Source: a virus (Duplodnaviria > Caudoviricetes). Taken from it: DNA of 53,482 bases. Both the position numbers and the translations under genes were made by a program. The notes below the pieces were generated by a model, which ran no database searches, was not told the DNA's origin, and saw nothing but the letters and a program-made list of their open reading frames with translations. The stretch spans positions 1 to 53,482 of IMG/VR virus record IMGVR_UViG_3300030117_002594; one strand, 5' to 3'. Shown here one piece after another: positions 13,171 through 41,030 of the stretch (positions are counted from its first letter, which is position 1; each line of letters begins with the position of its first letter).

Positions 13171-13686
13171 ATGGCATTAACACCAGCACAATTAGGATTA
13201 TTAGCAGGTGGTTCTGTGCTTGAAAATCTTTACTCTCAGAGTCAATCAAATAAAAGATTAGAAGGTTTTGAAGATAGAATAAATGAATTAAGCACTAAAC
13301 TAGAAGATAGATATACATCTATGTTTAATATTGCTGATATGTTTGCTCCAGGAGGACAAGTATATAGACAAGGTATGCAAACTGCAGTAGACACTGCTTT
13401 TACAACAGCGCAAAAAGGTGGAGAAACTTTACAATCTAAAGGTGTTAATTTAACATCTTATGGATTAGGTGCTGCTACTGATATTGCAGAAGAAGGTTTT
13501 ACTAAATCTTTTATGGACAATCAAACAAACTTAGCGCAAGTAGGAACTAGTTATGGTCAATTAGCAAGCAATATGTTAGGAGACTATGTAGATTTACAAA
13601 GTGATTTTGCAAGTGCAGAGTTTATGTCAACAGATGTTAGCAGTCCTTTTTCAGATTTATTAGAAATAGGTATAGGTTCTTTATAA
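13171..13686 (+). CDS. Small internal virion/ejection protein
   Basis: SD AAGGAGG; hydrophobic N-terminus LGLLAGGSVL; G/A/Q-rich helical; no Cys; first gene of the ejection cluster. Confidence 0.6.
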   Translation: MALTPAQLGLLAGGSVLENLYSQSQSNKRLEGFEDRINELSTKLEDRYTSMFNIADMFAPGGQVYRQGMQTAVDTAFTTAQKGGETLQSKGVNLTSYGLGAATDIAEEGFTKSFMDNQTNLAQVGTSYGQLASNMLGDYVDLQSDFASAEFMSTDVSSPFSDLLEIGIGSL

Positions 13687-13698
13687 TAGGAGATTTAA

Positions 13699-15381
13699 AT
13701 GGCAATTAATTTACAAGGCATATCAGGCACAATAGAACGTGAAAAGTCTGATGAAAATTTAAAGAAAAAACGTTTTTCAGATTCTATAAATAAATATTTT
13801 GAAGATGACAAAAATACTAACCTAGCTGTTATTGGTCAAGAAAAATCAGACCTTGTAAAAGTTATTAATGAATTAGACCATACAATGGATGCAGATGAGT
13901 ATACTCAAGTTGGAAATGCTCTTTCAGAATGGAGACAAAGTTCTTTAGAAAAAATAACAGACAAGAATGAGCAAACATTAATAAATGCTAGTTATGAATC
14001 TTTAAATACTTTAATAGAAGATAAACTAGACAATGCTACGGAGTATGAAACACAATATAAAGATTTATTAACTACACAAAAAAATATAAATGAATTAAAA
14101 GAAAACGCTGATATGGGTACTTTTAGTCAGATAGATAGTGTATTAACAAGTTATGGAGAAATATTAGATGGCATGTATAAGTTTATTGATAGGCAAGGTG
14201 AAGTTGCTCAGGAACATCAAACTAATATAAAAAATATAACTTCGTGGTTAGATTTAGGTAAAACTTTACAATCTACAGATAGTGATGCTGATATGCCAGG
14301 AATGCAAAGTAATGAAGATTATGGTAGTTTGTTTGATATGCATATGAATAGAGCGTTAAAATATTGGATTGGTGGTGATGAAGGGCTTGCTAAAAATAGT
14401 ATAATATTAGCAGACAATAGTATTTCTGGTGAAACAAGAATGCGAGCAAAAGTACTAGAAGAATTAAAAGAAGAAAAAAGAAATATGTTGTTAGGAGCTA
14501 CAGACCCAGGCACAGGTGGTGGCAGAAAAGGTGGATATATACAAAGTTCTAATTTTGACCAACAAAAATTAATTACTATACGTGAAGAAGTAGATAAAAA
14601 AGTTACAGCAGAAAATACGATAGGTGGACAGTATATTCCAAATCCTACTTTAAATACTAATGATATGGAACTAATTAACCTTTTATCAATAGGTGATGTT
14701 GAAGTAACAGGAGCAATTAAAGATGTTGAAGAAAGGCTAGATAAATTAACTTTAAGTGACCAAGGAAAAGCTTTACAACAAAGATTTGATACTATTGATA
14801 CTTTTTTTGGAAGTGGCGCTGGTTCAGGTTTAATTTCTGAAATTGATAGTAAATTAACAGAAGGTAATTTTAAACTTGTAAATGTTCAACCTGCTTCTAG
14901 TTCAGATAATTATTTTGAAAATGAACAAGTAAGAAATCAACTTAAGGAAGGTCTTTCTACAAATATAGAAAACATATTTAAATATTTAGATTCTGGACTA
15001 GGTGGATTTTTTGGTGGCTCATTTATTTCTTCTGACAGCACTCCTGATGAAATTGCACGTGGTTTAAGATTCGAAAATATGTATGGAATAGAATTTTTAG
15101 GTGATAATTATTATGACCCTAATGATGATATAAAAAAATTATTAGAAGGTGATTTAACAAAAGAAGATAAAGCTCTTCTTATGAATAATATTGTAGAAAT
15201 CTATTTAGGTGATAATAAAGAAATTGCAAAGAAAATGACTAAGAGTAACTTTGACGGAAATGAAGAAAAGGGTTATGAAATGTTTATATCCTTTTTAGAG
15301 GCATACAAAGCATTGCAGTCTATGGATTATTTAAAGGGGCAAAGCAGCCTTACTTCTGGTAGATTTGATACTAAAAAATAA
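13699..15381 (+). CDS. Internal virion/ejection protein
   Basis: 560 aa, helical composition, Cys-free, position in cluster. Confidence 0.55.
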   Translation: MAINLQGISGTIEREKSDENLKKKRFSDSINKYFEDDKNTNLAVIGQEKSDLVKVINELDHTMDADEYTQVGNALSEWRQSSLEKITDKNEQTLINASYESLNTLIEDKLDNATEYETQYKDLLTTQKNINELKENADMGTFSQIDSVLTSYGEILDGMYKFIDRQGEVAQEHQTNIKNITSWLDLGKTLQSTDSDADMPGMQSNEDYGSLFDMHMNRALKYWIGGDEGLAKNSIILADNSISGETRMRAKVLEELKEEKRNMLLGATDPGTGGGRKGGYIQSSNFDQQKLITIREEVDKKVTAENTIGGQYIPNPTLNTNDMELINLLSIGDVEVTGAIKDVEERLDKLTLSDQGKALQQRFDTIDTFFGSGAGSGLISEIDSKLTEGNFKLVNVQPASSSDNYFENEQVRNQLKEGLSTNIENIFKYLDSGLGGFFGGSFISSDSTPDEIARGLRFENMYGIEFLGDNYYDPNDDIKKLLEGDLTKEDKALLMNNIVEIYLGDNKEIAKKMTKSNFDGNEEKGYEMFISFLEAYKALQSMDYLKGQSSLTSGRFDTKK

Positions 15382-15391
15382 CAGAGATTAA

Positions 15392-18300
15392 ATGAAAAAA
15401 GATTTAAATAAAACTACTCATTATTTAACGAATGAAGAGTTAGCTAGAAATTTATTTTACCCAAAAGATAACAAAGAAAAGTTTCTTCCTTTAGTGTCAG
15501 AAGTAGATGCTAATGGTCAAATTAATTTTAGTGACCCTGCAGCAATTAAATCTTATGTAGATAGAGCTGTTGCAAGTGACTCTACTTTAAAAAATGTTTT
15601 AATAGATTATGCTCCTAAAGAAGATTTAACTCCTAGTTATTCAGATATGCTTGGCGCTAATATTGGCAATATAGGCAATATATTAAATGCTGCTAAAGTT
15701 ACTGCTCAAATTTATACAACTGAAAGTATAAAAGGAACTACCGCTGATGAACTTCCATATATATCTCAAGAAGAATATAAAAAAAGAAAAGCAGAAGGAG
15801 AAACTGTTTCAGATATATTTCCTCAATTAACTGAAGATTCTGCAAGAACATATACTGATTGGTTATTTTGGGCGCTTAAAAAACCTACTGATATAAAATT
15901 TGATGACCCTGATAGAATTTTACCTAATGCTACTGAAAGATTAAGAATGAGAGAACAATGGTATGATGAAGGTGGTGAAGTTGGTCCAGATGGTAAATGG
16001 TATAATATAGAAGAAAAAACACTTCCTAGTGGTAATAAGCAAACAATTAAAACTCCTTCTAATTTTAATAGATTTTGGACTCCATTAGAGTATAAAACTG
16101 AAGAACAGTATGAAAAAAGAAAAAATGAAAACCTAACTTGGAACAATGGTATATACAATGCAATAAGACAAAAATTTGCTTATGAATTTATGGATGGTAA
16201 AAATGATGCTGCTTTAGATGCATTGCTTTCAGATAGGCTTAATCAACATATAAACAATCCTAAATATGCAGAGTTGCAAGAATGGAGTAAATCTGTTGAA
16301 TGGAGTGAAGCTTTTGATGAAGGTCAATTAACTAAAAAAGTATTTAATGCTGTTACAGGAGCATTACCTAGTTATTTAATTCAAATGGGAACAGCAGTAG
16401 GTGTTGGTGCTGTTACTAAAAGTCCTTCAGCAGCTTTAACAACACAAGCTCTTATTGGTGCCAGTATGGATTCGTCAGATATGTTTATAGATGCTTATGA
16501 GTATTTGACTGAAAAAGGATTTAGTGATGTAGAGGCTAAGAATTTAGCAATGGCATATTTCGAAAACTATTTTGCAGCATCTATGGCTTTAGAAAGACTT
16601 CCTTTTATGTTTGCTTTTAGAAGAACAACAAAAGACCCTGCAACTAGAAGAAGTTTAATTAAGAAATTTTTTGGTGACAAATTTAAAAAGAATGTAGATG
16701 ACCTTGCTAATACAAAATTATATGGTGGACTTAATGTAGATGATTTTAGTAGAGTTGCAGGTGCTACATTTACACAGGGTGTTGCTGAGTCTGTTACTGA
16801 AATAGCACAATATACTACACAAATGGCTATGCAAACAGGTCAACCTATTAATCAGATGTATGGGTTTAATTTACCAATGGAATTTGAAACAGGTGGATAT
16901 AGGGAAGAACAAAAATTTGATGATTTAGCAGATATAAATACTTTATTAGATGCTGCTGTTGGCGGTTTTGGAATGGGTGCTATAACTGGTGCTGTTACTC
17001 CACAAACTAGAATTGAACAAATAAAACCTAAAGCTCCTCCTGGAAGTCAGGTAGGACAAGCTCCTGATAAACAAGCAACTCAAAAATCTGCAGAAATTAA
17101 AAAACCTGTTGATTTAGATGATAGAATAGAAATTGATACAAAACCAATTACAGAACAAGGTGCAGAGAGTGCCAGTCCGACTACTCGTAATATGTCAACA
17201 TATAATGAAGTAGAGTATCTTGAAGATGTAGTTAATATACAAATGGGAGCGCAGCCAGACTTGCTTGGTGAACAAAGAGCAAGTGAGATGATAGCGTCAG
17301 GAAGAACAGATAAGTTTGCTAATAAAGTAATAAGCCATCAAAAAAGAAAGTTTGAACAAGTTCCTTTACAAAAAGTTGTAGACCTTGTTAATGACTATGG
17401 TTTAAATATTATCGACAAAACTAATCTTGATAAAGATGTAAAAGATAGTTTAAAGTTAGAAGTATTAGAAGAAATAAAACGTAAGAAAGGTAGTAATCTT
17501 AGAAATAAAAAAGATATTACTAAAAGTGAAAAACAAAAATTAAATCGTATAGATAATCTAACGGTTGATAATCTTATAGACGCTGCTCAAAAAAATATAA
17601 GTGTAGATAAACTTGTTTCTGTTGGAGTTGATAAGGCTTTACAAACACAACAAGAGCAGGCTGTTGCAGATGTTACTCAAGCAGATGTTGACCCAATGCA
17701 ACAAATGAGCGATGAAGCAATAGATAAGGCAATACAAGAACAGTTAAATGTTCCTGCTGACCTTAAGAGACAAAGAGAAGAAAGTAAAAAGTCTACAGAT
17801 AAAACAACTGATGAAGCAATACAGTCTCAATTAAATATACCTGCTGGACTAAAAAGACAAAAAGCAGATACTATTGTAGACAAAGGTGTAGACAATGTAG
17901 ACAACATTAACATTAAAGCCAAAACAAGAAGAATCCAAGAGCAGCAATCTATATTAAGAACTTATGAAAACAAATTAAAACAAGCACCAGCTAATAAAAA
18001 ACCTGCAATACAAAAAGATATTGATGAAGTTAAAGCTAGGATTGAAACTTTAAATAATCAGTTACCTGATGAAGCTAAAGGTATATTATCAAAAGAAGAA
18101 ACTACTTTAGCAAACCAAGCACAATCAACTGCTAAAGAAGCTAATTTAATTGAATCTCCTAATTATTATATAGAGTCAGAAAAATCTATTGTATCTAAGT
18201 TGTCTAATCCTAAACTAAAAAAACTTATAAAAGAAAAAGAAAATAGTAACGAAAGTCTTGCTAAGAGTGATTTAAAAGCATTAAATAATGAAAAGGCTAG

Positions 18301-18547
18301 AAGAGAAGAAGCTAAAGATAAAAAGAAAGTTAAAGATGTAAAGGTAAAACCTAAAGAAGCAATTACTTTAGAAGAAGCAGATAATGAAATATTTGCACAG
18401 TTTTTACAAGATAATGATATAGATAATGTTAGAGATATTGGTGGTAAATCTAAAACAAAATCAGGTTTAACTAAAGAGCAACAACAAGATTTAGAAACTG
18501 AAATAGAACAAACAAAAGAAGAATTAAATAAAAAGAATTGTCAGTAA
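15392..18547 (+). CDS. Large ejection protein A (membrane-channel candidate)
   Basis: 1051 aa with Gly/Ala hydrophobic segments (LIQMGTAVGVGAV, AAVGGFGMGAITGAV) and a charged coiled-coil C-half; single Cys at the penultimate residue. Confidence 0.65.
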   Translation: MKKDLNKTTHYLTNEELARNLFYPKDNKEKFLPLVSEVDANGQINFSDPAAIKSYVDRAVASDSTLKNVLIDYAPKEDLTPSYSDMLGANIGNIGNILNAAKVTAQIYTTESIKGTTADELPYISQEEYKKRKAEGETVSDIFPQLTEDSARTYTDWLFWALKKPTDIKFDDPDRILPNATERLRMREQWYDEGGEVGPDGKWYNIEEKTLPSGNKQTIKTPSNFNRFWTPLEYKTEEQYEKRKNENLTWNNGIYNAIRQKFAYEFMDGKNDAALDALLSDRLNQHINNPKYAELQEWSKSVEWSEAFDEGQLTKKVFNAVTGALPSYLIQMGTAVGVGAVTKSPSAALTTQALIGASMDSSDMFIDAYEYLTEKGFSDVEAKNLAMAYFENYFAASMALERLPFMFAFRRTTKDPATRRSLIKKFFGDKFKKNVDDLANTKLYGGLNVDDFSRVAGATFTQGVAESVTEIAQYTTQMAMQTGQPINQMYGFNLPMEFETGGYREEQKFDDLADINTLLDAAVGGFGMGAITGAVTPQTRIEQIKPKAPPGSQVGQAPDKQATQKSAEIKKPVDLDDRIEIDTKPITEQGAESASPTTRNMSTYNEVEYLEDVVNIQMGAQPDLLGEQRASEMIASGRTDKFANKVISHQKRKFEQVPLQKVVDLVNDYGLNIIDKTNLDKDVKDSLKLEVLEEIKRKKGSNLRNKKDITKSEKQKLNRIDNLTVDNLIDAAQKNISVDKLVSVGVDKALQTQQEQAVADVTQADVDPMQQMSDEAIDKAIQEQLNVPADLKRQREESKKSTDKTTDEAIQSQLNIPAGLKRQKADTIVDKGVDNVDNINIKAKTRRIQEQQSILRTYENKLKQAPANKKPAIQKDIDEVKARIETLNNQLPDEAKGILSKEETTLANQAQSTAKEANLIESPNYYIESEKSIVSKLSNPKLKKLIKEKENSNESLAKSDLKALNNEKARREEAKDKKKVKDVKVKPKEAITLEEADNEIFAQFLQDNDIDNVRDIGGKSKTKSGLTKEQQQDLETEIEQTKEELNKKNCQ

Positions 18548-18559
18548 AGGGAGAAGTTA

Positions 18560-21500
18560 ATGGGACAAAAAATGATATGTCCAGTCAGTATTGAAGAATC
18601 ATACAGAATAAGTAAGCCTATATTTAATTCTGTATACAATAAATTTGTAGAAAAATATTCAGATAAAAAAGATGATTTTGATACAATAGGCTATATGCAC
18701 CAAATGTATTCTAAAGAAGAAGGTCTTATTGGTGAACTTTTTTCTATGTGGATAAAAGAGCATTATGGTGATAATGTTTATCAAAATACTGTAATGCTTA
18801 AACCTAACATTACTGATAAAGAAGGTCCAGAGTTTCAAGAGTTATATAGTATTATAAGTGATAATATTATAGATTTGTATGATGACCAAATTATAGCAAC
18901 AGAACAGGAAAGTAATGAAGGTGATGATGTTACTTATGATGGGAATGAAGAATCTAATTCTAAAGATGTAAACTTAAAATATAATAAAGAGTATTTTAAA
19001 AATAGATTGTTTAGTGCTATAAATGCTGAAGTAAGTGACAAAGAATTAATTGGTATATTTAATAATGCTAGAGAAAATACTTTTACTGATTTTATAAAAT
19101 ATGTTTCTGAAAATTTTGATGCAGCAAAAAAAGCTGGTGTAGTAAATTTAGAAAATGATTTAAATTTAAATGAACAACACTTTGATATAATACCTAATAT
19201 ACAAACACTACAAAAATTATACTATGTATGGCAGTTTAATAGACCTGAAAATAGAACTATGCTTTTACAGAAAGATGGTAAAAATAAAAGCAAAGCAAAA
19301 AAGTTTTATGTAATAACTAATTACGATGGTAAAAATATTAAACTTCCTAATGAGCAGTACATGATTGTAAAGCCATTAATAGATTTAAGAACAAAAAGAA
19401 AATTATCTCCTTATGCTCCTGTTAGTTTTTTAGATGAGTCTAAAGCTACACTACCATATGGTTCTAAAATAGGTGAAAAGACAGCATATATTTCTCTTAA
19501 AGATATGGTTACAATGAAGAGAGTAAAAAGAGGCGATAGAAAAGGTGAATGGTATGCTGAATCTGCTCATGGTAATTACTCTGAAAGTAAGTTAAATGAT
19601 TGGCTAAAGATAATGTTAAGGCAAGAAAACTTAACTATGGCAACTATTAGAGGTGGTAATAGTGGTACTGTATTACTTACATATGTAGATAAATTTTATT
19701 ATGATATTATGTTTCCTCCTGAAACTATAAAATCTTTATTACCTAAAATGCCTATGTCTTTTAAGCGTAGACTATCTCTTGATAAACCTAATAATTTTAT
19801 GCAAGATTATAGAGACTATGAAAATTTTGTATTAAAAAAACTACAAGGTGAGGGTGTTAAAAAGTTTGCAGATTTAGTTTCTGATTTTAATCAACTTTAC
19901 GATTTACAACAAAAATTATCTATTGTAAATTTTATAAAATATTTAAATAAAGAACTAGAGTTAGGTAACATTGATAATAAGGCAATGCAATTCTTTAAAG
20001 ATAATATAAAAGATTTACCTGTAGAAGATACTATAAACGAAGTAACTAAAATGAATCAATCTTATTTACATATGGGAGAATATCTTGCTAGTATTATTGC
20101 AAGACATGAATGGTTAAAGGCTGCTAGAGGAAATAAATATGCTTTAAATGAAAACTTAGAAAATATATTTAACAGAGTTAGACTATCAGCATCAGAAGGA
20201 TTAGTAGACTTAGATTCTGGAGATAGAAAAGTTTTAATATATGACCAAAATAAAGTTTATTATGTAGATACAGATAGTGGTAATAAAATAGATGCTCAGA
20301 CAGCAATAGAAGGTATGACAGATATTGATAATGATGATGGTCAGTTTCATGCTACAACAGATGATATAAATAGAATAGCATCAAATTCTGGTAGAAGAGC
20401 ATTATTAAATTATGAAAGAGACCCTAAAGAAGTAAAAACGGTGTCGTATGTATTAGAGCAAAACAAAGAATTAAATGAAGATGGAACACAGGCAGAAGAT
20501 AATATGGGCGAGTATAAGTCTATGTTATTTATAGCAGAGCCAAACTTTCAGGTTGTAGAAAAAGATACTGATAAAGTTATTTTAACTACTAGTAAAGATG
20601 TAAATGGTAATGTTACTATTACAGCAGGGCCAGCAACAAATATTCCAGGACAATCAATAGACAGGTTTGGTAGTTTAAATGTATTAAAAACATCTCAAGG
20701 AACTCATAATGTAGTTGGTACTCATAATATAGTTGATATACCTGCAAGTGCTACAAGAACAATAATATTGCCTGCTACTAAATCAAAAACAGATGCAGCA
20801 TTAGGCGGCACATGGGCTAACTCTTTTAATGTTAATAATAGTACTTTTAATAGTATAAGAAAATTATTAAACAAAGAATTTAAATCTATTATGGATACTA
20901 GTTTAAACAAGCTACATAAAATAAGAAGTAATCCAGACTATGCTAGAAAGTTATTAAGGTATCAAACAAAAGTTAGAGATGATGCTACAACAGAAGTTAA
21001 AAAAATGTATGAAATGACAGGTGGTAAAGGTATATATCACCCTATGTTTTGGAGTATATTTAGTAAAAGTTTATATAATACATATGTGTTAGATGATGGT
21101 TTAAAATTAAAAGTAACTATTGATAGAAGTAATCCATCTAAAGTATCTCAAGGAATGTCTACTAGTTTAATTATGAAAGGCGATATGAAAGGTCGTATTG
21201 CTATGAAAGATGGACAGCCTGAAGGTGTTATAGTTGGTGTAGGAAATACTAGATATTTAGCATATTTATCAGACAGATATTTACAAAGTGTAGATGAAGA
21301 TACTGCTAATAAATTTAGAGCATTTGAACTAGAAGATAAGGTAACTGCATTAAATAATTTTTTACCAAACAATCCTGATAAATTAGGCATTGTTAGACAG
21401 CCAGTACAAAGTCCTGGTGGTTATATATTTAGAAATGTTTTATCTGTTGATATGGATGCTGGTGATGTTATAATAATGCATACAGAAGATGTTGCTAAAG

Positions 21501-23050
21501 CATTAATTGGTGATAGTGATGGTGATAAAGCAAGTGGCATTATATGGCCTAATCAAAATGCTGTAAAAGAATTAGAGTCTTTACTTAAAGAACCTAGTGC
21601 AAAAACATTAATGGATATATCTGCAGACCTTAGCGTATTTGAGCCAATAGAAAAAACAAGTCCAGCAAGTTATACTGGATTTGTAGATACAATGCTTAGT
21701 GTTGTTAAGAATTTTAATGGTATGGGAATAATTACAAACCTTAAAACTGTTGCTAGCGTATTAGAGTTAAAGGTAGGTGATGGTATTATTGAGTTATCTG
21801 ATGGTACTGAAATACAAGTTATTAAAGCATTAGACCAAGTAGTTATGGATTATGCTCCATTAAAAGCTTCTATAAAAGATAGTGACCTACCTTCTTTTGC
21901 AAGAATAGTTAATAGAGATGGCTCTACTTACGATGGTAAAGGTGATAAATATATGCAAACTATAGCAGCACATGAAAGATTGTTGCTTTTAAATGCATCT
22001 ACTGATAACACCAAAGAACATTTGATAACTAAAAAATGGAATATTAACATGGAAACTATTGCATCGGTAGTTTTTAAAAGAGTTGATGGCAAAAATTTTA
22101 AAGGTATACAAGTAAAGCTGCTAGGAAATTTATTAAAGTTCTTTAACAATAGTCCTACTAGAAATGGTTTAGATAAAGAAACTAGACAGAATTTAACTTC
22201 AGAAAATTTTTATTTAAGGTCAAAAGAAATGTATAATTTTTTAAATATGAATGAAGCAGATAAGTTTGTAAAAGTAAAATCTTTTATAGATAGTAATGCA
22301 GGCAAATCAAAACTTAGCATTAAATCTATGCCTATTAGTAATGAACAAACTGTAGAAGAAATGCTTATATCAAGACCTTATGAAAAATTTGCACAAGATA
22401 CTGTAAGAGCAAATGAAAGTACTACTCGTAAATCTTGGGGAGAAGGGTTTGCTAGTCCAGTGGAATTTAGCGAAGTGTTTCAAAAGAATGTTAATATACA
22501 TGCTATAAATGGTTTTGAATCTACAATATCTGATTTTAAAGTAGATTCTTTAGCAACTAAAATTAGAGCATATGTTGAAAAAAATAATTTAATAAATGAA
22601 AATACTAGAGATGCATTAGAAGCTGCACAAGATTTTCTTAATGTTTTTGAAACAGAATTTAGATTAGCATTAGGTAGAGCATTAAAAGATAGACAAGGTG
22701 AAGAAGCAAATAATCCTACATTAAAAATCTATGAATATAGTGAAGAAATGTTTAACTTTATACAACAATTTAAAGACCCATATAATACATTGCTAGAACA
22801 ACATGGAGAAGTTTTTGCTATACATGTTACTTGGAAAATGTTTACAGGAATAGGTCAGATTAGATATACAAGATTGTATTATCCTAGTGTATTTGTGCAT
22901 CCAGCAACTTTTAAAATGTTTATGGAATCTTACGAAACATTACACCAGGCTTATAATAAAGATACAGGGCAAGATATTTTATCTAGTGAAGTATCAAAAG
23001 AAACATCTAAAATTAGGGTTAAAGACGACCCATTTTTAAATTGCAGATAG
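18560..23050 (+). CDS. Virion-associated single-subunit DPBB RNA polymerase (crAss vRNAP/YonO/QDE-1-like)
   Basis: Ordered motifs DDGQ, K..K (KEVKT, GEYKS), VRQP (R946), GDSDGD (D985-D989, nt 21509-21526), GMGIITN, LNASTDNTK; located among ejection genes. Confidence 0.8.
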   Translation: MGQKMICPVSIEESYRISKPIFNSVYNKFVEKYSDKKDDFDTIGYMHQMYSKEEGLIGELFSMWIKEHYGDNVYQNTVMLKPNITDKEGPEFQELYSIISDNIIDLYDDQIIATEQESNEGDDVTYDGNEESNSKDVNLKYNKEYFKNRLFSAINAEVSDKELIGIFNNARENTFTDFIKYVSENFDAAKKAGVVNLENDLNLNEQHFDIIPNIQTLQKLYYVWQFNRPENRTMLLQKDGKNKSKAKKFYVITNYDGKNIKLPNEQYMIVKPLIDLRTKRKLSPYAPVSFLDESKATLPYGSKIGEKTAYISLKDMVTMKRVKRGDRKGEWYAESAHGNYSESKLNDWLKIMLRQENLTMATIRGGNSGTVLLTYVDKFYYDIMFPPETIKSLLPKMPMSFKRRLSLDKPNNFMQDYRDYENFVLKKLQGEGVKKFADLVSDFNQLYDLQQKLSIVNFIKYLNKELELGNIDNKAMQFFKDNIKDLPVEDTINEVTKMNQSYLHMGEYLASIIARHEWLKAARGNKYALNENLENIFNRVRLSASEGLVDLDSGDRKVLIYDQNKVYYVDTDSGNKIDAQTAIEGMTDIDNDDGQFHATTDDINRIASNSGRRALLNYERDPKEVKTVSYVLEQNKELNEDGTQAEDNMGEYKSMLFIAEPNFQVVEKDTDKVILTTSKDVNGNVTITAGPATNIPGQSIDRFGSLNVLKTSQGTHNVVGTHNIVDIPASATRTIILPATKSKTDAALGGTWANSFNVNNSTFNSIRKLLNKEFKSIMDTSLNKLHKIRSNPDYARKLLRYQTKVRDDATTEVKKMYEMTGGKGIYHPMFWSIFSKSLYNTYVLDDGLKLKVTIDRSNPSKVSQGMSTSLIMKGDMKGRIAMKDGQPEGVIVGVGNTRYLAYLSDRYLQSVDEDTANKFRAFELEDKVTALNNFLPNNPDKLGIVRQPVQSPGGYIFRNVLSVDMDAGDVIIMHTEDVAKALIGDSDGDKASGIIWPNQNAVKELESLLKEPSAKTLMDISADLSVFEPIEKTSPASYTGFVDTMLSVVKNFNGMGIITNLKTVASVLELKVGDGIIELSDGTEIQVIKALDQVVMDYAPLKASIKDSDLPSFARIVNRDGSTYDGKGDKYMQTIAAHERLLLLNASTDNTKEHLITKKWNINMETIASVVFKRVDGKNFKGIQVKLLGNLLKFFNNSPTRNGLDKETRQNLTSENFYLRSKEMYNFLNMNEADKFVKVKSFIDSNAGKSKLSIKSMPISNEQTVEEMLISRPYEKFAQDTVRANESTTRKSWGEGFASPVEFSEVFQKNVNIHAINGFESTISDFKVDSLATKIRAYVEKNNLINENTRDALEAAQDFLNVFETEFRLALGRALKDRQGEEANNPTLKIYEYSEEMFNFIQQFKDPYNTLLEQHGEVFAIHVTWKMFTGIGQIRYTRLYYPSVFVHPATFKMFMESYETLHQAYNKDTGQDILSSEVSKETSKIRVKDDPFLNCR

Positions 23051-23060
23051 GGAGATAATT

Positions 23061-26000
23061 TTGGCTAAAAAGAATAAAGTAACTAACTGTTTTCCTTTTT
23101 CTAAAGGTGATGAGAATGCAGTCAATAACGACAGTCAATTAAGACAAAGAATTGATAGTGCATTAAATAACTTTATGAGAAATGAATATGGTCATGTTTT
23201 TCCAGGAAGTAGAATAAGGTTACAGGAAGAATTAAAAGCAGTAGTTAAACGTAAAAAAGATATAAAAGATAAATTAAAAAGAAAAACTACACCTGCTAAA
23301 GATAAACCTTTATTAAAACAACAATTAAAAAAAGCAATAAATTTACAAGGTAATTTATATCAAGATATTAAAGATTTTAACACTAAGAAAAAAATAGCAG
23401 ATAAGTTTATTGATTTAATTAGAACTGATTTAACTAAAAGTTTACAAGATAGTTATAGTGTATTAGATGTAGAAAAAGTTGGCCTTGCAATGAAAGAGGC
23501 TATGCAGTTTAAAACTGATGTTAGGTTTAGGCAGATAACAGATTTAAATCTTCTTGATATAAACTTATTGTATAATACTTATAAAAGTTGGTTTGACAAA
23601 AGAAATGCAGGCTTAGATTATAAGCGTTATAAAGGCATGGGTAAAAGAGACTGGAGTATGAAAGACTCTATGTTTGTTATATTGCATAACGACAAATCTC
23701 TCAAAGGTGTTTCTTTATTAAAAGATATACATGATTCATTAAATAAAAAATCTACAAAGAAAATTTACTTTAATAGAAAGTATGGTGAAAATAGACAAAA
23801 CCTAAATGATTTTGTTTATGCTTTTAACATTGCATATTTTCCAAATGAAGATGTACAGCCAGTAGATAAAAATAATTTAACTCCTTTTGAGCAAATGACT
23901 AGTATAAAAAATTTGCATGAATTAGAAGCGGATTTAATGGATGGTAGAACTAAGTACATAGTACCTCAACCTATAGGCGACCTTATTAAAAGGTCTAAAA
24001 CTTTAAAAGGTAAAGATAGTAATGCTCTTGAAAGATACAATAAAATAGTAACGTATGCTATTAATAGTGGATTTCATATTAGTAAAGACATACATGAGCA
24101 TAGAGTTGGTAATGAAGTATATTATTATGTTACAATGAAAACTACTGATAAAAATGGTGTAGAAAAGTATGAAGCATTTTTAGTTCCTCATACTATAGAC
24201 CCTGATACAAATAGAACTACTCTTATATATCCCAAAACTAAAGGAAATAAATTAAATGGTAAATGGGTAGCTGCTGTTAAAAAGCATCAGAATAATAAAG
24301 TTGATTTAGTTGATACTATGACAGAGGGATTTAGGCAGGCTCAGGAAGAAAAAATATTTAATGGCTTTAATAAAAACAATGAAGAAATAAGAGTTAAAGG
24401 TTACTCTCAATATACTAAATTAGATTTAACTTTAGACCATCCAATGTTTAAAAAGTCACGTATATTCCCAGGCTTACAAGGAACGTCAAACGTAAATATG
24501 TGGAGTACTATAAAAGAAATGAGAGAGTTATACGCTGAAGTTTTTGATTGGTTCCAAAAAAGCAACCTAGAAAACCATTTAGGTTTACAGGAAGGTTTAA
24601 AACAGTTACCAAAATTAAAGAAAAGATATATGGATAAATACAATATGACAGAAGAGGCTGCTAATGAGGCTGTTCAAAATATAGCAGATGCTTTAAAGTT
24701 AGAAGATATATTGTATATAGATGAACAAGATAATATTAAGACTGTATTAAGTCCACATATGCTTAATTATTCTACAGGAATAAAAGAAAACTATTATCCT
24801 AACATGTACACTTTTAATGATAATATGGCTGACCTTGTAAAAAGTTTAGAAGGTATAGAAGATGAAATTACTAGACTAGAAGAGCAGATAGGGCAAAAGC
24901 AATATTTATATGATAATGCTGATAACCAAAAAGACAAAAGAAAATTAGGTAGTCAACTGTTATCATTGAAAAAAAGATATAATATTTATAATGGTACAGA
25001 TGATACACCTGGTTTGCTTGAAATTGAAATTGAAAAAATTGAATTAATGCTTGGTTTAAAACAAGAGAATGAAGTAAAAAAAATACCTACACAGCAAATG
25101 TCACCTTATATTAAGCACAGAAAATTGTATACTAATAGATTAAAGGACCCAGACCCTTCTGTATTGTATGGTGGTAGAAGAAGTGACCCAGCAGTTTTTA
25201 CAGATTATGTTGAAAGCATGGTTAATACAACTTACAATAATGAGTTGAATACATCTTCAATAAATAACTTGCAATTTACAGAGCCTTTTATAACTGAGTA
25301 TTTGCTAGAAGAAATAAAAACAGCATTAGGTAGAATAGATGTTCAAGCAATGGGTCCTGTAATGGCTTTAGGTTTAGCACCAGTTCCTTATTATGTTGAT
25401 TATTCTAATCAAAAAATAGTAGATGGCATAAATAATTTTTTAGGAGAAGATTCTAAGATTACTATAGAACAATTACAAAAAGCATCTTCTAGATTTAATT
25501 CTTTTCTTTCAGCTAATACTTTAGGTATAAATGTAAGTCTTGCTAATAATATGCAAGGACATATGGGTGCTATTATAAAAACAGGTATGCAAGGTGAAGA
25601 GCAAGTTAGAAGAATTTTAGAGGACGAAGCACTAACAAATGAAATAGTAGATGCATCAGGTGTTTTAGATACTGTTACTTCTGTAGCAGATGTTTTTTTA
25701 GCTACTCACACTGGTAAATTAAATCTTGCTGATGGGTTTGTTGCTCAAAAAGATATAGCATTATATAAACTTGCTAAAACTGATTTTATGAAAAGAGCTG
25801 CTAATTCATCTATCGGTATACTATTTACAAATCAACTTATAAAAGATAATGTAGACCTTACAAAAGATGAGGTAGGACCTATATTAAAAAATTTATTAGA
25901 AGGTAGTTGGGAAGCAGTAAATGGAATTGCTAAAGGAACTATTAGCGATAAATGGTTAGATGCAATAAGAAAAAAAATGGGTGACCAAGGAAGTGATACA

Positions 26001-26942
26001 GCTTTAAGAATATTTGTAACATGGGGAATGTCAGCATACGGTATTACAGACCAGTTTACAGAGGCAAAAGAATTAGAATCTTATTTAGGTATGATAAAAG
26101 GTGAGATACGTATGAGAAGAAACACTTTGTTAAGAGGTGTTGTTATGTACGCTGATTATGTAGAGCCTGAGTTAAAAGGTAATTACACACATCCTAGAGC
26201 AATAGAAGCAGGTCGTGCATTAGTTACTACTACTATGTTTAATTTTAGTTTACAAAACTTTCCTAAGATGTTTAGAGGAGCAGCAGGTCAAACCATATGG
26301 AAGTTTAAAACTTATCCTTATTTACAGGCTCATGCAGAATATCAAACAGTCGATAATTTTTTTAAATCTTTAAAAGGATTACCTCCAGCAAGAAGAGCGC
26401 AAGAATGGCGTAAAGCTCTTATTCCTGACAATAATTTTATAGGTAATTTATTAGGTTACGATGCAGATGATGTTAATGCTTTTAATAAATCTCTTTTTAC
26501 AAAAATGCTTAATCCAGATGTTGATACAAGCGGTAAAAGAGGTGCTACTGCTCAATTCTCAAGATATATATGGTCTAGAGTATTAGTTTCTATGTTTCAC
26601 GTAGCATTTGAACAGTTTAATGTTGTAAGAAAAATGAAGCAGATTCAAAGAGCATTAGGAATGGGTAGTCCAGATGCAATGATTAGAGGTGGAGAAGGAG
26701 TTTTATCTTCTACAGTACTTAGAACATTAAAGTTAACACTAGCAACAATAGGTTTATATGCAATAGATGAAGATGAGGAAGATGAATTAATAAACCAATT
26801 TTTAAGAATAGGAACTCCGCTTTTACTTAATGTTGCTATAGAAACAATTAAAACTGGAGACCCTACTAAAGGTGCTAGATTAGTTGCTAATGTTTATTAT
26901 AAAGTTTTTAATGCTTTAGGTCTGATACCTGAATTTGATTAG
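23061..26942 (+). CDS. Large ejection protein C
   Basis: TTG start after GGGAGA; 1293 aa; C-terminal 'TTMFNFSLQNFPKMFRG..GQTIWKFKTYP' resembles podoviral large internal proteins; single Cys at residue 10. Confidence 0.65.
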   Translation: MAKKNKVTNCFPFSKGDENAVNNDSQLRQRIDSALNNFMRNEYGHVFPGSRIRLQEELKAVVKRKKDIKDKLKRKTTPAKDKPLLKQQLKKAINLQGNLYQDIKDFNTKKKIADKFIDLIRTDLTKSLQDSYSVLDVEKVGLAMKEAMQFKTDVRFRQITDLNLLDINLLYNTYKSWFDKRNAGLDYKRYKGMGKRDWSMKDSMFVILHNDKSLKGVSLLKDIHDSLNKKSTKKIYFNRKYGENRQNLNDFVYAFNIAYFPNEDVQPVDKNNLTPFEQMTSIKNLHELEADLMDGRTKYIVPQPIGDLIKRSKTLKGKDSNALERYNKIVTYAINSGFHISKDIHEHRVGNEVYYYVTMKTTDKNGVEKYEAFLVPHTIDPDTNRTTLIYPKTKGNKLNGKWVAAVKKHQNNKVDLVDTMTEGFRQAQEEKIFNGFNKNNEEIRVKGYSQYTKLDLTLDHPMFKKSRIFPGLQGTSNVNMWSTIKEMRELYAEVFDWFQKSNLENHLGLQEGLKQLPKLKKRYMDKYNMTEEAANEAVQNIADALKLEDILYIDEQDNIKTVLSPHMLNYSTGIKENYYPNMYTFNDNMADLVKSLEGIEDEITRLEEQIGQKQYLYDNADNQKDKRKLGSQLLSLKKRYNIYNGTDDTPGLLEIEIEKIELMLGLKQENEVKKIPTQQMSPYIKHRKLYTNRLKDPDPSVLYGGRRSDPAVFTDYVESMVNTTYNNELNTSSINNLQFTEPFITEYLLEEIKTALGRIDVQAMGPVMALGLAPVPYYVDYSNQKIVDGINNFLGEDSKITIEQLQKASSRFNSFLSANTLGINVSLANNMQGHMGAIIKTGMQGEEQVRRILEDEALTNEIVDASGVLDTVTSVADVFLATHTGKLNLADGFVAQKDIALYKLAKTDFMKRAANSSIGILFTNQLIKDNVDLTKDEVGPILKNLLEGSWEAVNGIAKGTISDKWLDAIRKKMGDQGSDTALRIFVTWGMSAYGITDQFTEAKELESYLGMIKGEIRMRRNTLLRGVVMYADYVEPELKGNYTHPRAIEAGRALVTTTMFNFSLQNFPKMFRGAAGQTIWKFKTYPYLQAHAEYQTVDNFFKSLKGLPPARRAQEWRKALIPDNNFIGNLLGYDADDVNAFNKSLFTKMLNPDVDTSGKRGATAQFSRYIWSRVLVSMFHVAFEQFNVVRKMKQIQRALGMGSPDAMIRGGEGVLSSTVLRTLKLTLATIGLYAIDEDEEDELINQFLRIGTPLLLNVAIETIKTGDPTKGARLVANVYYKVFNALGLIPEFD

Positions 26943-27408: not shown

Positions 27409-27563
27409 TAAAGGCCCAGTCTTTCTTCTATTTTTTTAAGTCTTTTAATTGCAGATTCAAGTCTTTCTTCTAACTCAGAATTACTTACACTTACAACTTT
27501 TTTTACAACTTTTTTTTCTTCTACTGGCGTAGATTCTATCTTTTCTTTTTTTGATGCAGACAT
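27408..27563 (-). CDS. 51-aa coiled-coil protein (not in ORF track)
   Basis: SD GGGAGG; MSASKKEKIESTPVEEKKVVKKVVSVSNSELEERLESAIKRLKKIEERLGL*; TAATG-coupled to the resolvase. Confidence 0.7.
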   Translation of the reverse strand: MSASKKEKIESTPVEEKKVVKKVVSVSNSELEERLESAIKRLKKIEERLGL

Positions 27564-27777
27564 AGCATACCTCCCTTGTTAATCCATAAGTAGGAAAACT
27601 ATCATGGAATATTATTTTATGGTGTCTTGTGTATTTTAATGGTTTTTCCCAAACTTTATTGCACTTAGTACATAATCTTACAGGAAAATGGTCATGTTTA
27701 TGTTCACGTTTTTGAGGAACAAATAATCTTGCCTCTGGAATCCACCAAGGATTTTTATTTTTATAAAACTGGCACAT
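27481..27777 (-). CDS. Zn-finger-like hypothetical protein (probably leaderless)
   Basis: CTKC...CYVC; no SD; TAAATT ends 5 nt before the ATG. Confidence 0.6.
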   Translation of the reverse strand: MCQFYKNKNPWWIPEARLFVPQKREHKHDHFPVRLCTKCNKVWEKPLKYTRHHKIIFHDSFPTYGLTREVCYVCIKKRKDRIYASRRKKSCKKSCKCK

Positions 27778-29097: not shown

Positions 29098-30870
29098 TTA
29101 TGGTAGTATTATGTTTTGTTCTTTTGTTGGTATTAGTTTACACCCTTTAGGATATAAATTCAAATACAACGATTCTTTCTCACGATTGGCTGTAGTTTCT
29201 ATTTTAATTTTAGAAATCAAACCATCTTGTGATTTAGTTGGTGATACAGATATAATCTTGTTAGCATTGTAAGCAACTCTAAAAGAGCCTCTGCTAGATG
29301 ATATATCCATACCTTCTCTCATTGCTGTCTTGCTAATCTCACTAACAGCAAAAACAATTACGTTCTGTTGTATAGCAAGTTCCATTAAAGACTGAGAAAC
29401 TTCCTCTAACTTGATGTTATTATCACTTTGGTTAGACGAGAATAGACCCATATGGTCAACAATAACAACTTCTGGTTTAACAGGACACATTTGTATTTTC
29501 TTTGCTAATTCTTTAGAATTGCAAGGATTGTAATCAACAGTCAACCAATCAAATTGTTTGCTAATACCGTTTAGTTCTCCTCTTTTATGCATTTCTCTAA
29601 TCTCTTCATCTTCTTTCTCTAAATGAATTGACAAGAATCTAGACCATATCTGTCTTGGTGACATCTCTAATTCAAGAAAGTATGTTGGTTTAGCAAGTTC
29701 ATACATCCAGTTTTGTAATAACATAGTTTTCATAGACTTTGGTGGTGCTTGTATAATAACAACCTCACCAGGATATATAGGAAAATCTTTACCGTAAGGT
29801 CTACCAAGATTTACACCTGCATCGTCCATTTCATAAAATGTAAATAACTCTTTTTCCATAGCAGCAGCAGACATAGTGCCTACAGACTTCTTAGATTTAT
29901 ATAGTTTACATGTACTTTTACAAAAGTTATCCATTACTTGGTCTTTACAACCATATCTATTGCCTTTACCTCCATGTGCTTGATAAGCAGAGTTTATAAT
30001 ACCATCTAATTCCTTTTCTGTAAAAGGTTTTTCTGGTATATCAACTTTCTTACGCCATGATTCCATCATTACTCTTACAGTATCTTCTGGATATAACCAT
30101 CTAAGCCAAGCAGATAAACGTAATGCTACAGCATGCCTGTTACCAAATCCTGTACCTTTAAGCATTTCTGATATACAAGGATAGTTAGTAGGGTCTGGCT
30201 CTCTGCCATAATCTTTAGTAATCAAATTGTCGTAACTCTTTATTTTACGAGACTTTACATCAAATGGTGGATTCATAGTTTCATAGCCTTCAAGTTGGTC
30301 ATCAAACTTTTGTGATGTTTTAGCATACTCTAAAATATCTTCTATAGCACTATGTAGTAAGTTCATCGAAATTTGTACTTTCCACAAACCAGACTTGTTA
30401 TTTCTTGTATTAAGTGACCTTATAATACGTGTCTTATCTGTTACAGAAGGGTCTGCAATTTCAAATATACCTTTTTCTGTTAGCTCATCTTTAACTTTTA
30501 GATGCAAATCTTTACAAGGCTCCCATATAAAGTTCTTACTAGATATACCTACATGAAAACCAGTGCCACTAAAGTACACATTACATCTGTATACACCCAT
30601 ATCATCAAGCATTTTTACAAGCGCCATTGTTTTTTGTCTTGCTTTTTCAGGATTATTACCATCTATATCAAGTAAAAACTCATCAGGCATGTATATATTA
30701 CCATCATAACCTGATAGACTACTCTTCTTTTTAACATACTCAACAACATTCTTGTCATACTCCCATAAACTATGGAAAGTATCTTTCGCAATGTTTTCCC
30801 ATTTACCTATATCAGCACTATCCATAAAATGGTGTCTATTTGATAAACCGAAAGCAAATTCTCTTATCAT
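29098..30870 (-). CDS. AEP primase(-polymerase) fused to a PriL-like Cys domain and a RecA/DnaB-like helicase
   Basis: AEP motifs LLDID, YFSGTGFH, DKTRIIR; YPCI...RH...YGC...FCKSTC; degenerate Walker A QAPPKSMKT and Walker B VIVDH. Confidence 0.8.
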   Translation of the reverse strand: MIREFAFGLSNRHHFMDSADIGKWENIAKDTFHSLWEYDKNVVEYVKKKSSLSGYDGNIYMPDEFLLDIDGNNPEKARQKTMALVKMLDDMGVYRCNVYFSGTGFHVGISSKNFIWEPCKDLHLKVKDELTEKGIFEIADPSVTDKTRIIRSLNTRNNKSGLWKVQISMNLLHSAIEDILEYAKTSQKFDDQLEGYETMNPPFDVKSRKIKSYDNLITKDYGREPDPTNYPCISEMLKGTGFGNRHAVALRLSAWLRWLYPEDTVRVMMESWRKKVDIPEKPFTEKELDGIINSAYQAHGGKGNRYGCKDQVMDNFCKSTCKLYKSKKSVGTMSAAAMEKELFTFYEMDDAGVNLGRPYGKDFPIYPGEVVIIQAPPKSMKTMLLQNWMYELAKPTYFLELEMSPRQIWSRFLSIHLEKEDEEIREMHKRGELNGISKQFDWLTVDYNPCNSKELAKKIQMCPVKPEVVIVDHMGLFSSNQSDNNIKLEEVSQSLMELAIQQNVIVFAVSEISKTAMREGMDISSSRGSFRVAYNANKIISVSPTKSQDGLISKIKIETTANREKESLYLNLYPKGCKLIPTKEQNIILP

Positions 30871-30886: not shown

Positions 30887-31747
30887 TTAAAATATATATC
30901 GTACGTTCTGCCAAGGTAACGTCTTTTTATGTAACTTTAAAAACTTTTTAATATAACCCTTCTTCAAGTGTCTATCGTATCTTACGTTCTCACCACCATA
31001 TTCAGATAATTTATTTTCCTGTATGCCTGGTTGCCATAAATATTCTTCACCTTGTATTTCATTTTCTACATTATGAGCATGTAGTACTTTATTGTGTATT
31101 AAAAATATACACTCTGCTTTTACATTTTGCTTTATTTCATTGTCAACTAGTTTATCTATCATTTCAAATAACATTTCATAAGATTGTTTAAAGCCCTTGA
31201 ACATAACTATTGGTGAGTAATTTATATGCACATCATAACCTGCATCATAATACTCATTGATTGCTCTTACTCTATCTATTATCTTTGGTGTACCAGGTTC
31301 TAATAAATCAGATAAGAACTGTGGCATTAAACTAAATCTAATTCTAATTTTTCTTTTAGGATTGTATTTCAATAATTTTTTACCTACATATTTAGTTGCA
31401 GCAGTACCCATAGCCTTTGGCTCGTTTACAAAATAATCAAATAATTTTTCCCATTCATGATATTTTGCATGTAATACATAATCTTCGTTACAACTAAAAT
31501 CATATGTATAATATTTATTATGTGTTTGATTAGGTTTCTTAGGCCAATCTAGTAACCATAAATGACTTGCAATACTATCAATTATCATGTTTGTATTTTT
31601 AGCAACTGTTAAACCTGTTGGTACATTTCTTCTCATATAACAATAAGTACATTTGTATTCACAACCATGTCCAAAACTAGGTGTTATAAAGTCACTGCTT
31701 CTACCAGAATCTCTTATAATAAATGTTTTTCTGTTTAAATATCTCAT
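30887..31747 (-). CDS. splB: Spore photoproduct lyase-family radical SAM enzyme
   Basis: GCEYKCTYCY (CxxxCxxC), YDFSCNED (position of the SPL catalytic Cys), ATKY, RIRFSLMP, GYDVHINYSP. Confidence 0.8.
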   Translation of the reverse strand: MRYLNRKTFIIRDSGRSSDFITPSFGHGCEYKCTYCYMRRNVPTGLTVAKNTNMIIDSIASHLWLLDWPKKPNQTHNKYYTYDFSCNEDYVLHAKYHEWEKLFDYFVNEPKAMGTAATKYVGKKLLKYNPKRKIRIRFSLMPQFLSDLLEPGTPKIIDRVRAINEYYDAGYDVHINYSPIVMFKGFKQSYEMLFEMIDKLVDNEIKQNVKAECIFLIHNKVLHAHNVENEIQGEEYLWQPGIQENKLSEYGGENVRYDRHLKKGYIKKFLKLHKKTLPWQNVRYIF

Positions 31748-33951: not shown

Positions 33952-34084
33952 CGTTTTCTCCTGTTTCGTTATTAGTTATTAAATTAAATTCATCACAATG
34001 TAATTGTGCTTCTTCTTTAGAAAAGAATTTGTATCCATCTGGTGTTATCCAGACTGTTCTAAGTTCTGTATGTATTTTAGCCAT
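33935..34084 (-). CDS. 49-aa hypothetical protein (not in ORF track)
   Basis: GGGAGG SD; MAKIHTELRTVWITPDGYKFFSKEEAQLHCDEF... Confidence 0.7.
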   Translation of the reverse strand: MAKIHTELRTVWITPDGYKFFSKEEAQLHCDEFNLITNNETGENDVKEI

Positions 34085-34286
34085 CTATAAGCCTCCCATT
34101 AAACTTTTTTATTACATAATCAGTTAGTGGATGAGGTATTTCTGGCTCTACTATAGGTGTACCATGTTCTACCATTGCATTGTAAGACTCATATATCCAT
34201 ATACATTTCTCACAATCAGGACAATTATTTTCTTTACAGATTTTTAACTGCTCTTTAGCTTCTTCTGTTTGACAAAACCAACTCAT
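34077..34286 (-). CDS. Small Cys-containing hypothetical protein
   Basis: C..C, CPDCEKC; coupled to neighbouring genes. Confidence 0.65.
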   Translation of the reverse strand: MSWFCQTEEAKEQLKICKENNCPDCEKCIWIYESYNAMVEHGTPIVEPEIPHPLTDYVIKKFNGRLIDG

Positions 34287-40940: not shown

Positions 40941-41030
40941 ATGCCATACGGTCCAGGTACATACGGTAAAAAAAGAGGGAGACCTCCAGTTAAGAAAAAG
41001 AAAAAAAAGGGTAAGAAGAAAAAGAAATAA
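40941..41030 (+). CDS. 29-aa AT-hook/poly-Lys peptide (not in ORF track)
   Basis: SD AAGGAG; MPYGPGTYGKKRGRPPVKKKKKKGKKKKK*; TAATG-coupled to TerL. Confidence 0.75.
   Translation: MPYGPGTYGKKRGRPPVKKKKKKGKKKKK

Follow-up and report, generated by a model that had tools for sequence, protein, structure and literature searches.

Paired terminal cysteines suggest head-to-tail coupling of putative virion RNA polymerase proteins in an uncultured marine phage and in crAss-like phages

The virus record IMGVR_UViG_3300030117_002594, whose 53,482 bases make up the window analyzed here, represents almost the whole genome of a marine tailed phage that has not been cultured. Three of its genes encode very large proteins, here called A, B and C, which probably are the counterpart of the virion-packaged RNA polymerase (RNAP) module of crAss-like phages, to judge from their sequence features. 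These proteins are almost devoid of cysteine, and the few that they contain lie at the chain ends that face the A-B and B-C gene junctions. The same arrangement is conserved in a family of marine relatives and in crAss-like phages, where fusion of two of the genes is accompanied by loss of the cysteines at that junction only. On the strength of this pattern, we propose with moderate confidence that the proteins are joined head to tail by disulfides (A-S-S-B-S-S-C), which would give the equivalent of a polyprotein that is released by reduction.

Cysteines of the putative cargo proteins lie at two gene junctions

Five co-oriented genes of 171, 560, 1051, 1496 and 1293 codons, separated by spacers of 9-12 nucleotides (nt), lie 3' of two large tail/fibre-like genes. 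The first two encode putative cargo or ejection proteins with no cysteine at all: a protein of 171 amino acids (aa) that opens the cysteine-depleted series (13171..13686, + strand) and has no Pfam or PHROG family, and a 560-aa protein (13699..15381, + strand) with no significant family, its sole match being a sub-threshold one to DUF16 (E 0.096; 13.6 bits, where the cut-off is 40). Protein A (1051 aa; 15392..18547, + strand) has a single cysteine, Cys1050, in the C-terminal sequence KKNCQ-stop (TGT codon, 18539..18541, + strand). Protein B (1496 aa; 18560..23050, + strand), a candidate RNA polymerase of the two-barrel type, has two: Cys7 in MGQKMICP (TGT, 18578..18580, + strand) and Cys1495 in FLNCR-stop (TGC, 23042..23044, + strand). 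The only cysteine of protein C (1293 aa from a TTG start; 23061..26942, + strand) is Cys10, in MAKKNKVTNCFP (TGT, 23088..23090, + strand). A and B thus both end in N-C-x-stop (NCQ and NCR). If the cysteines are couplers, A would be a starter with a coupler at its C-terminus only, and C a terminator with one at its N-terminus only. Our script count agrees in every respect with the initial annotation of this DNA, which had given the same open reading frame (ORF) lengths, cysteine positions and N-C-x-stop ends and had placed the cysteines at the two gene junctions with the outer ends bare.

Taken together, the five proteins contain 4 cysteines in 4571 residues (A-1050, B-7, B-1495 and C-10), compared with 101 in 11040 residues (0.91%) for the remaining 41 greedy ORFs of the window. 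Given this 0.91% background, the binomial probability of finding at most 4 cysteines in 4571 residues is 8e-14. The probability that four cysteines fall within 10 residues of exactly these four termini by chance is approximately 7e-9. The terminal pattern exceeds what chance would produce, and no other cargo protein in the window carries a terminal cysteine.

One of the four positions, C10, hinges on the TTG start at 23061. A Shine-Dalgarno-like GGGAGA (23050..23055, + strand) lies 6 nt upstream of this codon, spaced as is the GGGAGA (18549..18554, + strand) that precedes the ATG of B, and the first in-frame ATG (23175) lacks such a site. In a relative (L001), the same N-terminal peptide of C opens with ATG.

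The terminal cysteines are conserved in a marine family

A search of a 5.8-billion-protein collection provided 11 B proteins (that of the window and ten at 37-77% identity), 10 A proteins and 9 C proteins. All 11 B proteins have exactly two cysteines, one at residue 7, which is invariant, and one among the last three residues. In the A family, 9 of 10 members have exactly one cysteine, which is among the last seven residues, and both N1049 and C1050 are invariant in the alignment (A4). Eight of the nine C proteins have a cysteine at residues 7-19, which in six of them is the only one; the ninth record is an N-terminally truncated fragment, and C10 is invariant in the alignment (A5).

We also compared 13 loci with flanking DNA, several of which are the same or near-identical contigs. 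At all 13, A has one cysteine 2-14 residues from its end, B has Cys7 and a cysteine in its last three residues, C has one at residues 7-12, and both small upstream proteins have none. Across lineages, TGT and TGC are each used at all four sites. Because both cysteine codons occur, selection acts on the amino acid residue, and we rejected the idea of a signal at the nucleotide level.

Protein B has the catalytic signature of a two-barrel RNA polymerase

The predicted catalytic region of B (21395..21526, + strand) consists of R946-Q-P-V-Q and, 39 residues on, D985-S-D-G-D, a metal-binding DxDxD motif. R946-Q-P-x-Q and D985-x-D-G-D are invariant in the 11-sequence alignment (A1). A point of reference is gp66 of Cellulophaga phage phi14:2, described as a crystallographically defined two-barrel RNA polymerase with the catalytic motif 1361-DFDID-1365 (PDB 6vr4; bioRxiv 10.1101/2020.03.07.982082). 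In gp66, as in the marine B proteins, an R-x-P lies exactly 39 residues before the first aspartate (R1322-I-P, D1361-F-D-I-D), and the same spacing recurs in crAss001 gp50, DAC15, cr10_1, LMMB and cr8_1. When the 60 upstream residues are set side by side, a further element, G-D/S-x-I/V-I/V, is shared between the R-x-P and the aspartate triad. From this motif and its spacing, B is very likely a gp66-type polymerase.

General searches did not reach this assignment. PHROGs, Pfam and PDB sequence searches returned nothing for A, B or C, phmmer and profile searches of B against the PDB gave 0 hits, and tblastn of B against GenBank phages found no match. A genome-contig scan and an exact-peptide viral scan for A, B and C were likewise blank. 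The window proteins match none of the crAss-like proteins by BLASTP. An hhalign comparison of marine B (A1) with crAss B (A3) was non-significant (probability 0.6%), as was the profile-profile comparison of the marine and crAss C families. The label of RNA polymerase that the initial annotation had given to B therefore finds no backing in family or PDB sequence searches and draws its support from the comparison of catalytic motif and spacing.

Structure prediction added little. An AlphaFold2 model of B residues 201-1380, built from a 6-row alignment, had a predicted local distance difference test (pLDDT) score of 50.3 and no Foldseek hit at E<=0.001; we discarded its matches (best E 0.47) because the model is too poor. 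Of 30 ESM Atlas feature hits for B, 22 fell in a set carrying PF05183 RdRP (score 0.92, 176/256 features), which we treat as a lead only, and C gave unnamed viral clusters and weak 'LPD' leads only.

Because sequence and profile comparisons are non-significant, the case for homology of the module to that of crAss-like phages is built from the motif, the order of the genes and the cysteine pattern. Given these features, the module probably belongs, as a very remote member, with the virion RNAP modules of crAss-like phages, in a phage that itself lies outside Crassvirales by the tests that we ran. By analogy with crAss-like phages, and from gene position and cysteine depletion, we infer that the window proteins are packaged in the virion and ejected.

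The same layout occurs in crAss-like phages

We computed cysteine positions from the GenBank records of 18 crAss-like or FpV4 genomes, of which four have three separate genes, six have B fused to C and eight have A fused to B. The layout fits 18 of 18, and the outer N-terminal end of A or AB and the outer C-terminal end of C or BC are without cysteine throughout. The mention in the initial annotation of terminal cysteines in crAss-like cargo proteins is thereby confirmed.

Among the phages with separate genes, phi14:2 has a single cysteine in gp67 (A; 1797 aa), at the final residue (C1797); gp66 (B; 2180 aa) has only C3 and C2179, and gp65 (C; 1421 aa) only C3. In Bacteroides phage crAss001, whose gp47, gp50 and gp49 are orthologous by BLASTP to gp67, gp66 and gp65, respectively, gp47 (2341 aa) has only C2339, gp50 (2412 aa) has C5, C1334 and C2404, and gp49 (1349 aa) has only C5. 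Since gp47 lies on the strand opposite gp50 and gp49, the cysteine pattern is independent of gene adjacency. DAC15 has C2220 of 2222 as the only cysteine of A, C5, three internal cysteines and C2265 (the last residue) in B, and C4 and C619 in C. In IAS virus the termini fit, there are more internal cysteines, and the B gene is interrupted by ambiguous bases. This B appears as two ORFs of 837 and 2159 aa (L021 15812-24794), with ambiguous bases (X) near the break and the C-terminal end, and the break is probably an issue of sequence quality, not a real split.

As a negative control, we examined MW202615, a 65-kb unclassified podophage. It encodes a 2166-aa cysteine-free protein (L029 27793-34293) without the aspartate-triad motif, and its seven large proteins that were checked have no terminal cysteine and no DxD[GI]D motif. 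MW202615 has cysteine-free cargo without couplers.

Gene fusion is accompanied by loss of the junction cysteines

In all six phages with a B-C fusion (LMMB, crAss002, cr271_1, cr11_1, cr8_1 and cr3_1), A keeps a cysteine in the final or second-to-last position. BC has one at residue 3 or 5, and its last 12 residues are free of cysteine. The BC protein of crAss002, gp33 (L019 17088-29825), fits if it starts at Met33 (M-S-C), the annotated start placing the cysteine at residue 35. The in-frame M-S-C at residues 33-35 is the MSC with which the orthologues of LMMB, cr271_1, cr11_1 and cr3_1 begin, and because of this match we judge that the annotation probably places the start 32 codons ahead of the true one. 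Within LMMB BC, the B-C junction lies at approximately residues 2250-2680 by BLAST, and there is no cysteine between 2221 and 3104.

The eight phages with an A-B fusion (FpV4, cr10_1, cr4_1, cr56_1, cr113_1, cr7_1, cr6_1 and cr1_1) show the converse. Each AB protein has an N-terminal end free of cysteine and a cysteine 0-10 residues from the C-terminal end, and the separate C retains its cysteine at residues 3-6. FpV4 gp32 (AB) has one cysteine in 4287 residues, at 4286, and the two cysteines among the 4551 residues of cr1_1 AB are C4026 and C4548; in these two fusions the junction cysteines have certainly been lost. When four Suoliviridae A-B fusions are aligned, just two cysteine columns are common to at least three, one at the C-terminus and another close to the catalytic motif, and internal cysteines show no conservation at the junction.

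Wherever two of the genes are fused (14 of 14 genomes), cysteine is thus lost at precisely that junction and the other pair is retained. The initial annotation had suggested looking for terminal cysteines that are conserved pairwise and lost together where genes are fused, and this is what the marine family and the fusion genomes bear out. No phage with all three genes fused was found. The four conserved cysteines are retained from 100% identity to no detectable similarity, against a cysteine-suppressed background, and for this reason, on comparison of the sequences, they must be functional.

A separate feature of the giant genes concerns their stop codons. In five Suoliviridae (cr113_1, cr4_1, cr56_1, cr7_1 and cr6_1; L023, L026, L028, L032 and L033), the only in-frame stop codons within the annotated giant genes are TAG, of which there are 7-148, consistent with TAG reassignment; cr10_1 and cr1_1, which belong to the same family, lack such codons.

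A model for head-to-tail coupling

Fusion removes one C-terminal (C-type) and one N-terminal (N-type) cysteine and leaves the other two. Together with the presence of cysteine at the C-terminal end alone in A, at both ends in B and at the N-terminal end alone in C, this is the outcome that pairing from head to tail would predict. Only with this pairing do the lost cysteines form a pair and the kept cysteines form a pair in both types of fusion. The alternative in which A pairs with C and B with itself would leave two widowed yet conserved cysteines after either type of fusion.

In the proposed mechanism, the C-terminal end of A would be joined in the finished virion to the N-terminal end of B, and the C-terminal end of B to the N-terminal end of C, most simply by disulfides. 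The product would be an A-B-C chain of approximately 3840 residues with only tiny stubs at the links. Such a chain would be topologically linear because each cysteine lies only a few residues from a chain end, which an internal bond would not allow. It could then be threaded, unfolded as a single polypeptide would be, along the channel of the portal and tail, with the order of the proteins fixed and their ratio at 1:1:1, until the reducing host cytoplasm opened the links and set the RNA polymerase free. Gene fusion, whether A-B or B-C, and cysteine coupling would be interchangeable routes to the same chain, and the purge of all other cysteines would avoid mispairing and branches. We infer the pairing, the disulfide chemistry, the threading as one chain and the reductive release from the sequences. 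More tentatively, Crassvirales, FpV4-like phages and the marine lineage may all build such a redox-cleavable pseudo-polyprotein, ejected as a single thread from which host thiol reductants free the active RNAP.

Published work on the cultured phages fits several of these steps. According to the gp66 preprint and GenBank notes, gp65, gp66 and gp67 are virion proteins, and the preprint reports that gp66 enters the host with the DNA and transcribes early genes and that recombinant gp66 is active alone, as a monomer, in a buffer containing dithiothreitol (bioRxiv 10.1101/2020.03.07.982082). Disulfides are chemically credible because crAss001 virions hold several of the intermolecular kind, which the cryo-electron microscopy atlas describes as joining tail hub to ring proteins and as present within the gp57 dimer (PMC10172136).

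The initial annotation had also suggested co-folding of the chain ends. For A 852-1051 with B 1-200, the median interaction prediction score from aligned errors (ipSAE) was 0.37 (runs 0.57, 0.37 and 0.02), against 0.00 for the best of three controls, with a partner pLDDT of 55. In the calibration, 58 of 80 solved complexes reached the mark, as did 2 of 110 mismatched pairs; both of these mismatches, but only 7 of the 80 solved complexes, passed with a score of 0.60 or less. The result lends weak support to the model. Charge complementarity between basic N-terminal and acidic C-terminal peptides is a weak trend with exceptions (A of L010 stands at +9), and we do not use it as evidence. We also dismissed a zincin protease, as A, B and C have no HExxH motif.

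Several points weigh against the model. In the marine A family, P0019 has no terminal cysteine; it departs from the 85%-identical P0018 past residue 980 and ends approximately 97 residues early, and from its sequence it looks like a truncated record. Sequence comparison does not demonstrate that A and C of the window are homologous to their crAss counterparts. The depletion is not absolute in crAss-like phages, several of whose B or BC proteins have 3-14 internal cysteines. Some of their small cargo proteins have a lone cysteine near the C-terminus (the 861-aa protein of LMMB, C860; crAss002 gp30, C550 of 557) or the N-terminus (FpV4 gp30, C5; cr8_1 gp20, C5; cr6_1 gp34, C10). These cysteines have no obvious partner, and a three-link chain would therefore be incomplete in those phages. 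Virions assemble in a reducing cytoplasm, so that the disulfides would have to form late. B, which has both types of end, could cyclise or polymerise. Finally, loss of the junction cysteines would also be expected for any function that needs a free chain end.

The small cargo proteins with a lone terminal cysteine are encoded at L017 3576-6161 and 2662-3456, L019 6393-8066, L020 8054-9850, L027 3354-6902, L033 7147-9087, L025 4654-5460 and L035 4276-5175. A C-terminal [RA]CGG followed by a basic tail recurs in proteins of 264-299 aa and in crAss002 gp30 (557 aa).

Other roles for the terminal cysteines

The terminal cysteines might form links of another kind, either between like chains (A-A, B-B and C-C) or to the portal, the tail ring or the small cargo proteins, and so anchor the cargo until ejection. 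The lone terminal cysteines of small crAss-like cargo proteins would suit such links, the crAss001 portal vertex and tail are reported to be rich in intermolecular disulfides (PMC10172136), and loss of cysteines at a fused junction would follow simply, the ends being gone. We nevertheless consider these links unlikely. They leave unexplained why the N-terminal end of A or AB and the C-terminal end of C or BC are bare in 18 crAss-like genomes and the marine family, and why N-type and C-type cysteines balance at 2:2 per module, or 1:1 after fusion. The window itself offers no other cargo protein with a terminal cysteine as a partner.

It appears quite unlikely that the same ends are paired head to tail through a shared metal ion, in a zinc site made by four termini or in two-cysteine sites completed by other ligands, assembled in the cytoplasm and lost on unfolding. 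Metal bridges would account for the same conservation and fusion pattern without a cytoplasmic oxidant, and the four thiols of a module would be the right number for a single tetrahedral site. However, alignments A1, A4 and A5 show no conserved histidine, aspartate or second cysteine beside the terminal ones. A four-cysteine site is also hard to reconcile with the fused variants, which are left with two thiols per module and still keep them strictly, and a knot of four termini would be bulkier to thread than a linear chain.

The reading in which the cysteines are not links at all, being instead part of short terminal signals (for procapsid packaging, processing or modification) or, in B, an intramolecular pair, seems very unlikely: the N-terminal peptides of B and C are indeed alike (M, a small residue, basic residues, Cys and often Pro), and capsid-targeting peptides exist in other phages, but the cysteine alone is invariant across families while its flanks and its distance from the end vary (residues 3-19 at N-terminal ends, 0-13 residues from C-terminal ends), A and C cannot pair internally because each has a single cysteine, and a signal would not be expected to follow the junction-only rule or to be lost in pairs on fusion. 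Pfam provided no intein, lipobox or signal-peptide feature, and we dropped lipidation, inteins and signal peptides accordingly. Split inteins or Hint halves are likewise not indicated, as A, B and C have no Pfam domain at E<=0.1 except for one sub-threshold coiled-coil hit, and cysteines 0-18 residues from the chain ends leave no room for intein halves.

Comparison with known delivery systems

The module resembles the RNAP module of crAss-like phages (phi14:2 gp67-gp66-gp65; crAss001 gp47/gp50/gp49) in consisting of three very large adjacent proteins in a structural block, in the R-x-P, 39 residues and DxDxD of the middle protein, in extreme cysteine depletion and in identical, junction-only terminal cysteines. 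It differs in that the window proteins are 30-45% shorter and have no BLASTP or hhalign similarity to the crAss proteins, the motif is DxDGD in place of DFDxD, the N-terminal cysteines lie at residue 7 or 10 in place of 3-6, and the genome is 53 kb in place of approximately 100 kb. Virion location is known for the phi14:2 and crAss001 proteins and is predicted for those of the window. We did not assign the phage to the order Crassvirales: its portal matched one unclassified podophage only and B matched none by tblastn, and it has 53.5 kb at 96% completeness, compared with approximately 90-105 kb.

The ejection operons of Schitoviridae (N4 gp50-52, DEV gp71-73) also deliver a giant virion RNA polymerase with helper proteins and show strong cysteine suppression. 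A, B and C sum to 3840 aa, against approximately 3500 aa in the N4 enzyme, which has N-terminal, polymerase and C-terminal parts. The N4-type polymerase belongs to the T7-like single-subunit class. Unlike the module described here, it is one polypeptide without cysteine, in which terminal couplers are neither needed nor present. The DEV paper gives a cysteine content of 0.865% proteome-wide and of 0.00075% in N4-type virion RNA polymerases (gp71 homologues), and attributes the suppression in ejected proteins to passage through the host envelope (PMC11445570). We rejected a Schitoviridae-type operon for the window, in which B has a motif of the two-barrel type and the four terminal cysteines are conserved.

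Interchain-disulfide AB toxins offer a mechanistic analogy only. In these toxins, one disulfide tethers a cargo chain to its carrier while the chain passes in unfolded form through a membrane pore, and reduction in the cytosol frees it. There is no sequence or structural relation; the toxin chains derive from one precursor that is nicked within a disulfide loop, whereas the chains proposed here are separate gene products set end to end. The disulfides of the crAss001 tail hub, ring and gp57 proteins are likewise intermolecular and occur in particles assembled in the cytoplasm. They differ from the proposed couplers, which would lie on flexible cargo ends, in stapling folded structural proteins side by side.

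Genomic setting of the module

The window has 30% G+C and an estimated completeness of 96%. The genes for A, B and C follow a tail-fibre-like gene and share their strand with the genes for the terminase large subunit (41030-42616), portal (43571-45874) and major capsid protein (46840-48327); a primase-helicase (29098-30870) is encoded on the minus strand. Other genes identified in the window are Gp157/Gam-like, AAA_24 and PD-(D/E)XK. When the portal was searched by tblastn against 50,697 GenBank phage records, it gave a single weak match, to the unclassified podophage MW202615 over 19% of the query, and because the portal has just this one weak relative, the phage represents an undescribed lineage. 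Its relatives come from metagenome and virome contigs that are 54-58 kb long, two of which belong to TARA-named records.

Other features of the genome are of note in their own right. Strong cysteine depletion extends to the 1963-aa protein at 7207-13098 (+ strand), in which residues 325-413 form a tail-fibre-like segment (PHROG 1197); this protein has 2 cysteines (660 and 1866; 0.10%), both non-terminal. In contrast to the neighbouring cysteine-free cargo block, two small ORFs on the minus strand are very rich in cysteine, with 8 in 98 aa (27481-27777) and 5 in 69 aa (34077-34286); neither has a Pfam family. A 286-aa protein (30887-31747, minus strand) matches spore photoproduct lyase (PF20903, E 6.7e-19) and, weakly, radical-SAM proteins, and is by its sequence a possible UV-damage repair gene in a phage with relatives from marine metagenome records. 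Two ORFs, 3-1091 and 51450-53480 (both + strand), run off the ends of the record and, should the genome be circularly permuted, may be the two pieces of a single gene.

Implications for viral protein delivery

We rate the proposed coupling mechanism as new in kind and the module as a remote variant of a known one. Full-text literature searches, whose scope excluded supplements and subscription-only papers, found no description of terminal cysteines in these proteins. Outside supplements and extended-data tables, the available text of the gp66 preprint contains neither 'cysteine' nor 'Cys', and that of the crAss001 atlas does not contain 'cysteine'; the coupler feature is also not mentioned in the available text of the DEV paper (PMC11445570).

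If the proposal is true, it would establish a new principle for the ordered, stoichiometric delivery of viral proteins. The crAss-like phages are the most abundant human gut viruses, and each module comprises over 600 kDa of cargo that has to travel down a narrow tail. According to the crAss001 structural atlas, the three RNAP-associated proteins were not resolved (PMC10172136). Conserved end-to-end coupling would supply a concrete mechanism for the order, stoichiometry and release of the cargo, testable in phi14:2 and crAss001, which are cultured phages with the same layout. It would also account for genes that are split or fused according to lineage, and the avoidance of cysteine in ejected proteins would become a positive design principle. 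The terminal-cysteine signature may, in addition, serve as a sequence marker for virion RNAP modules in divergent uncultured phages where homology searches fail.

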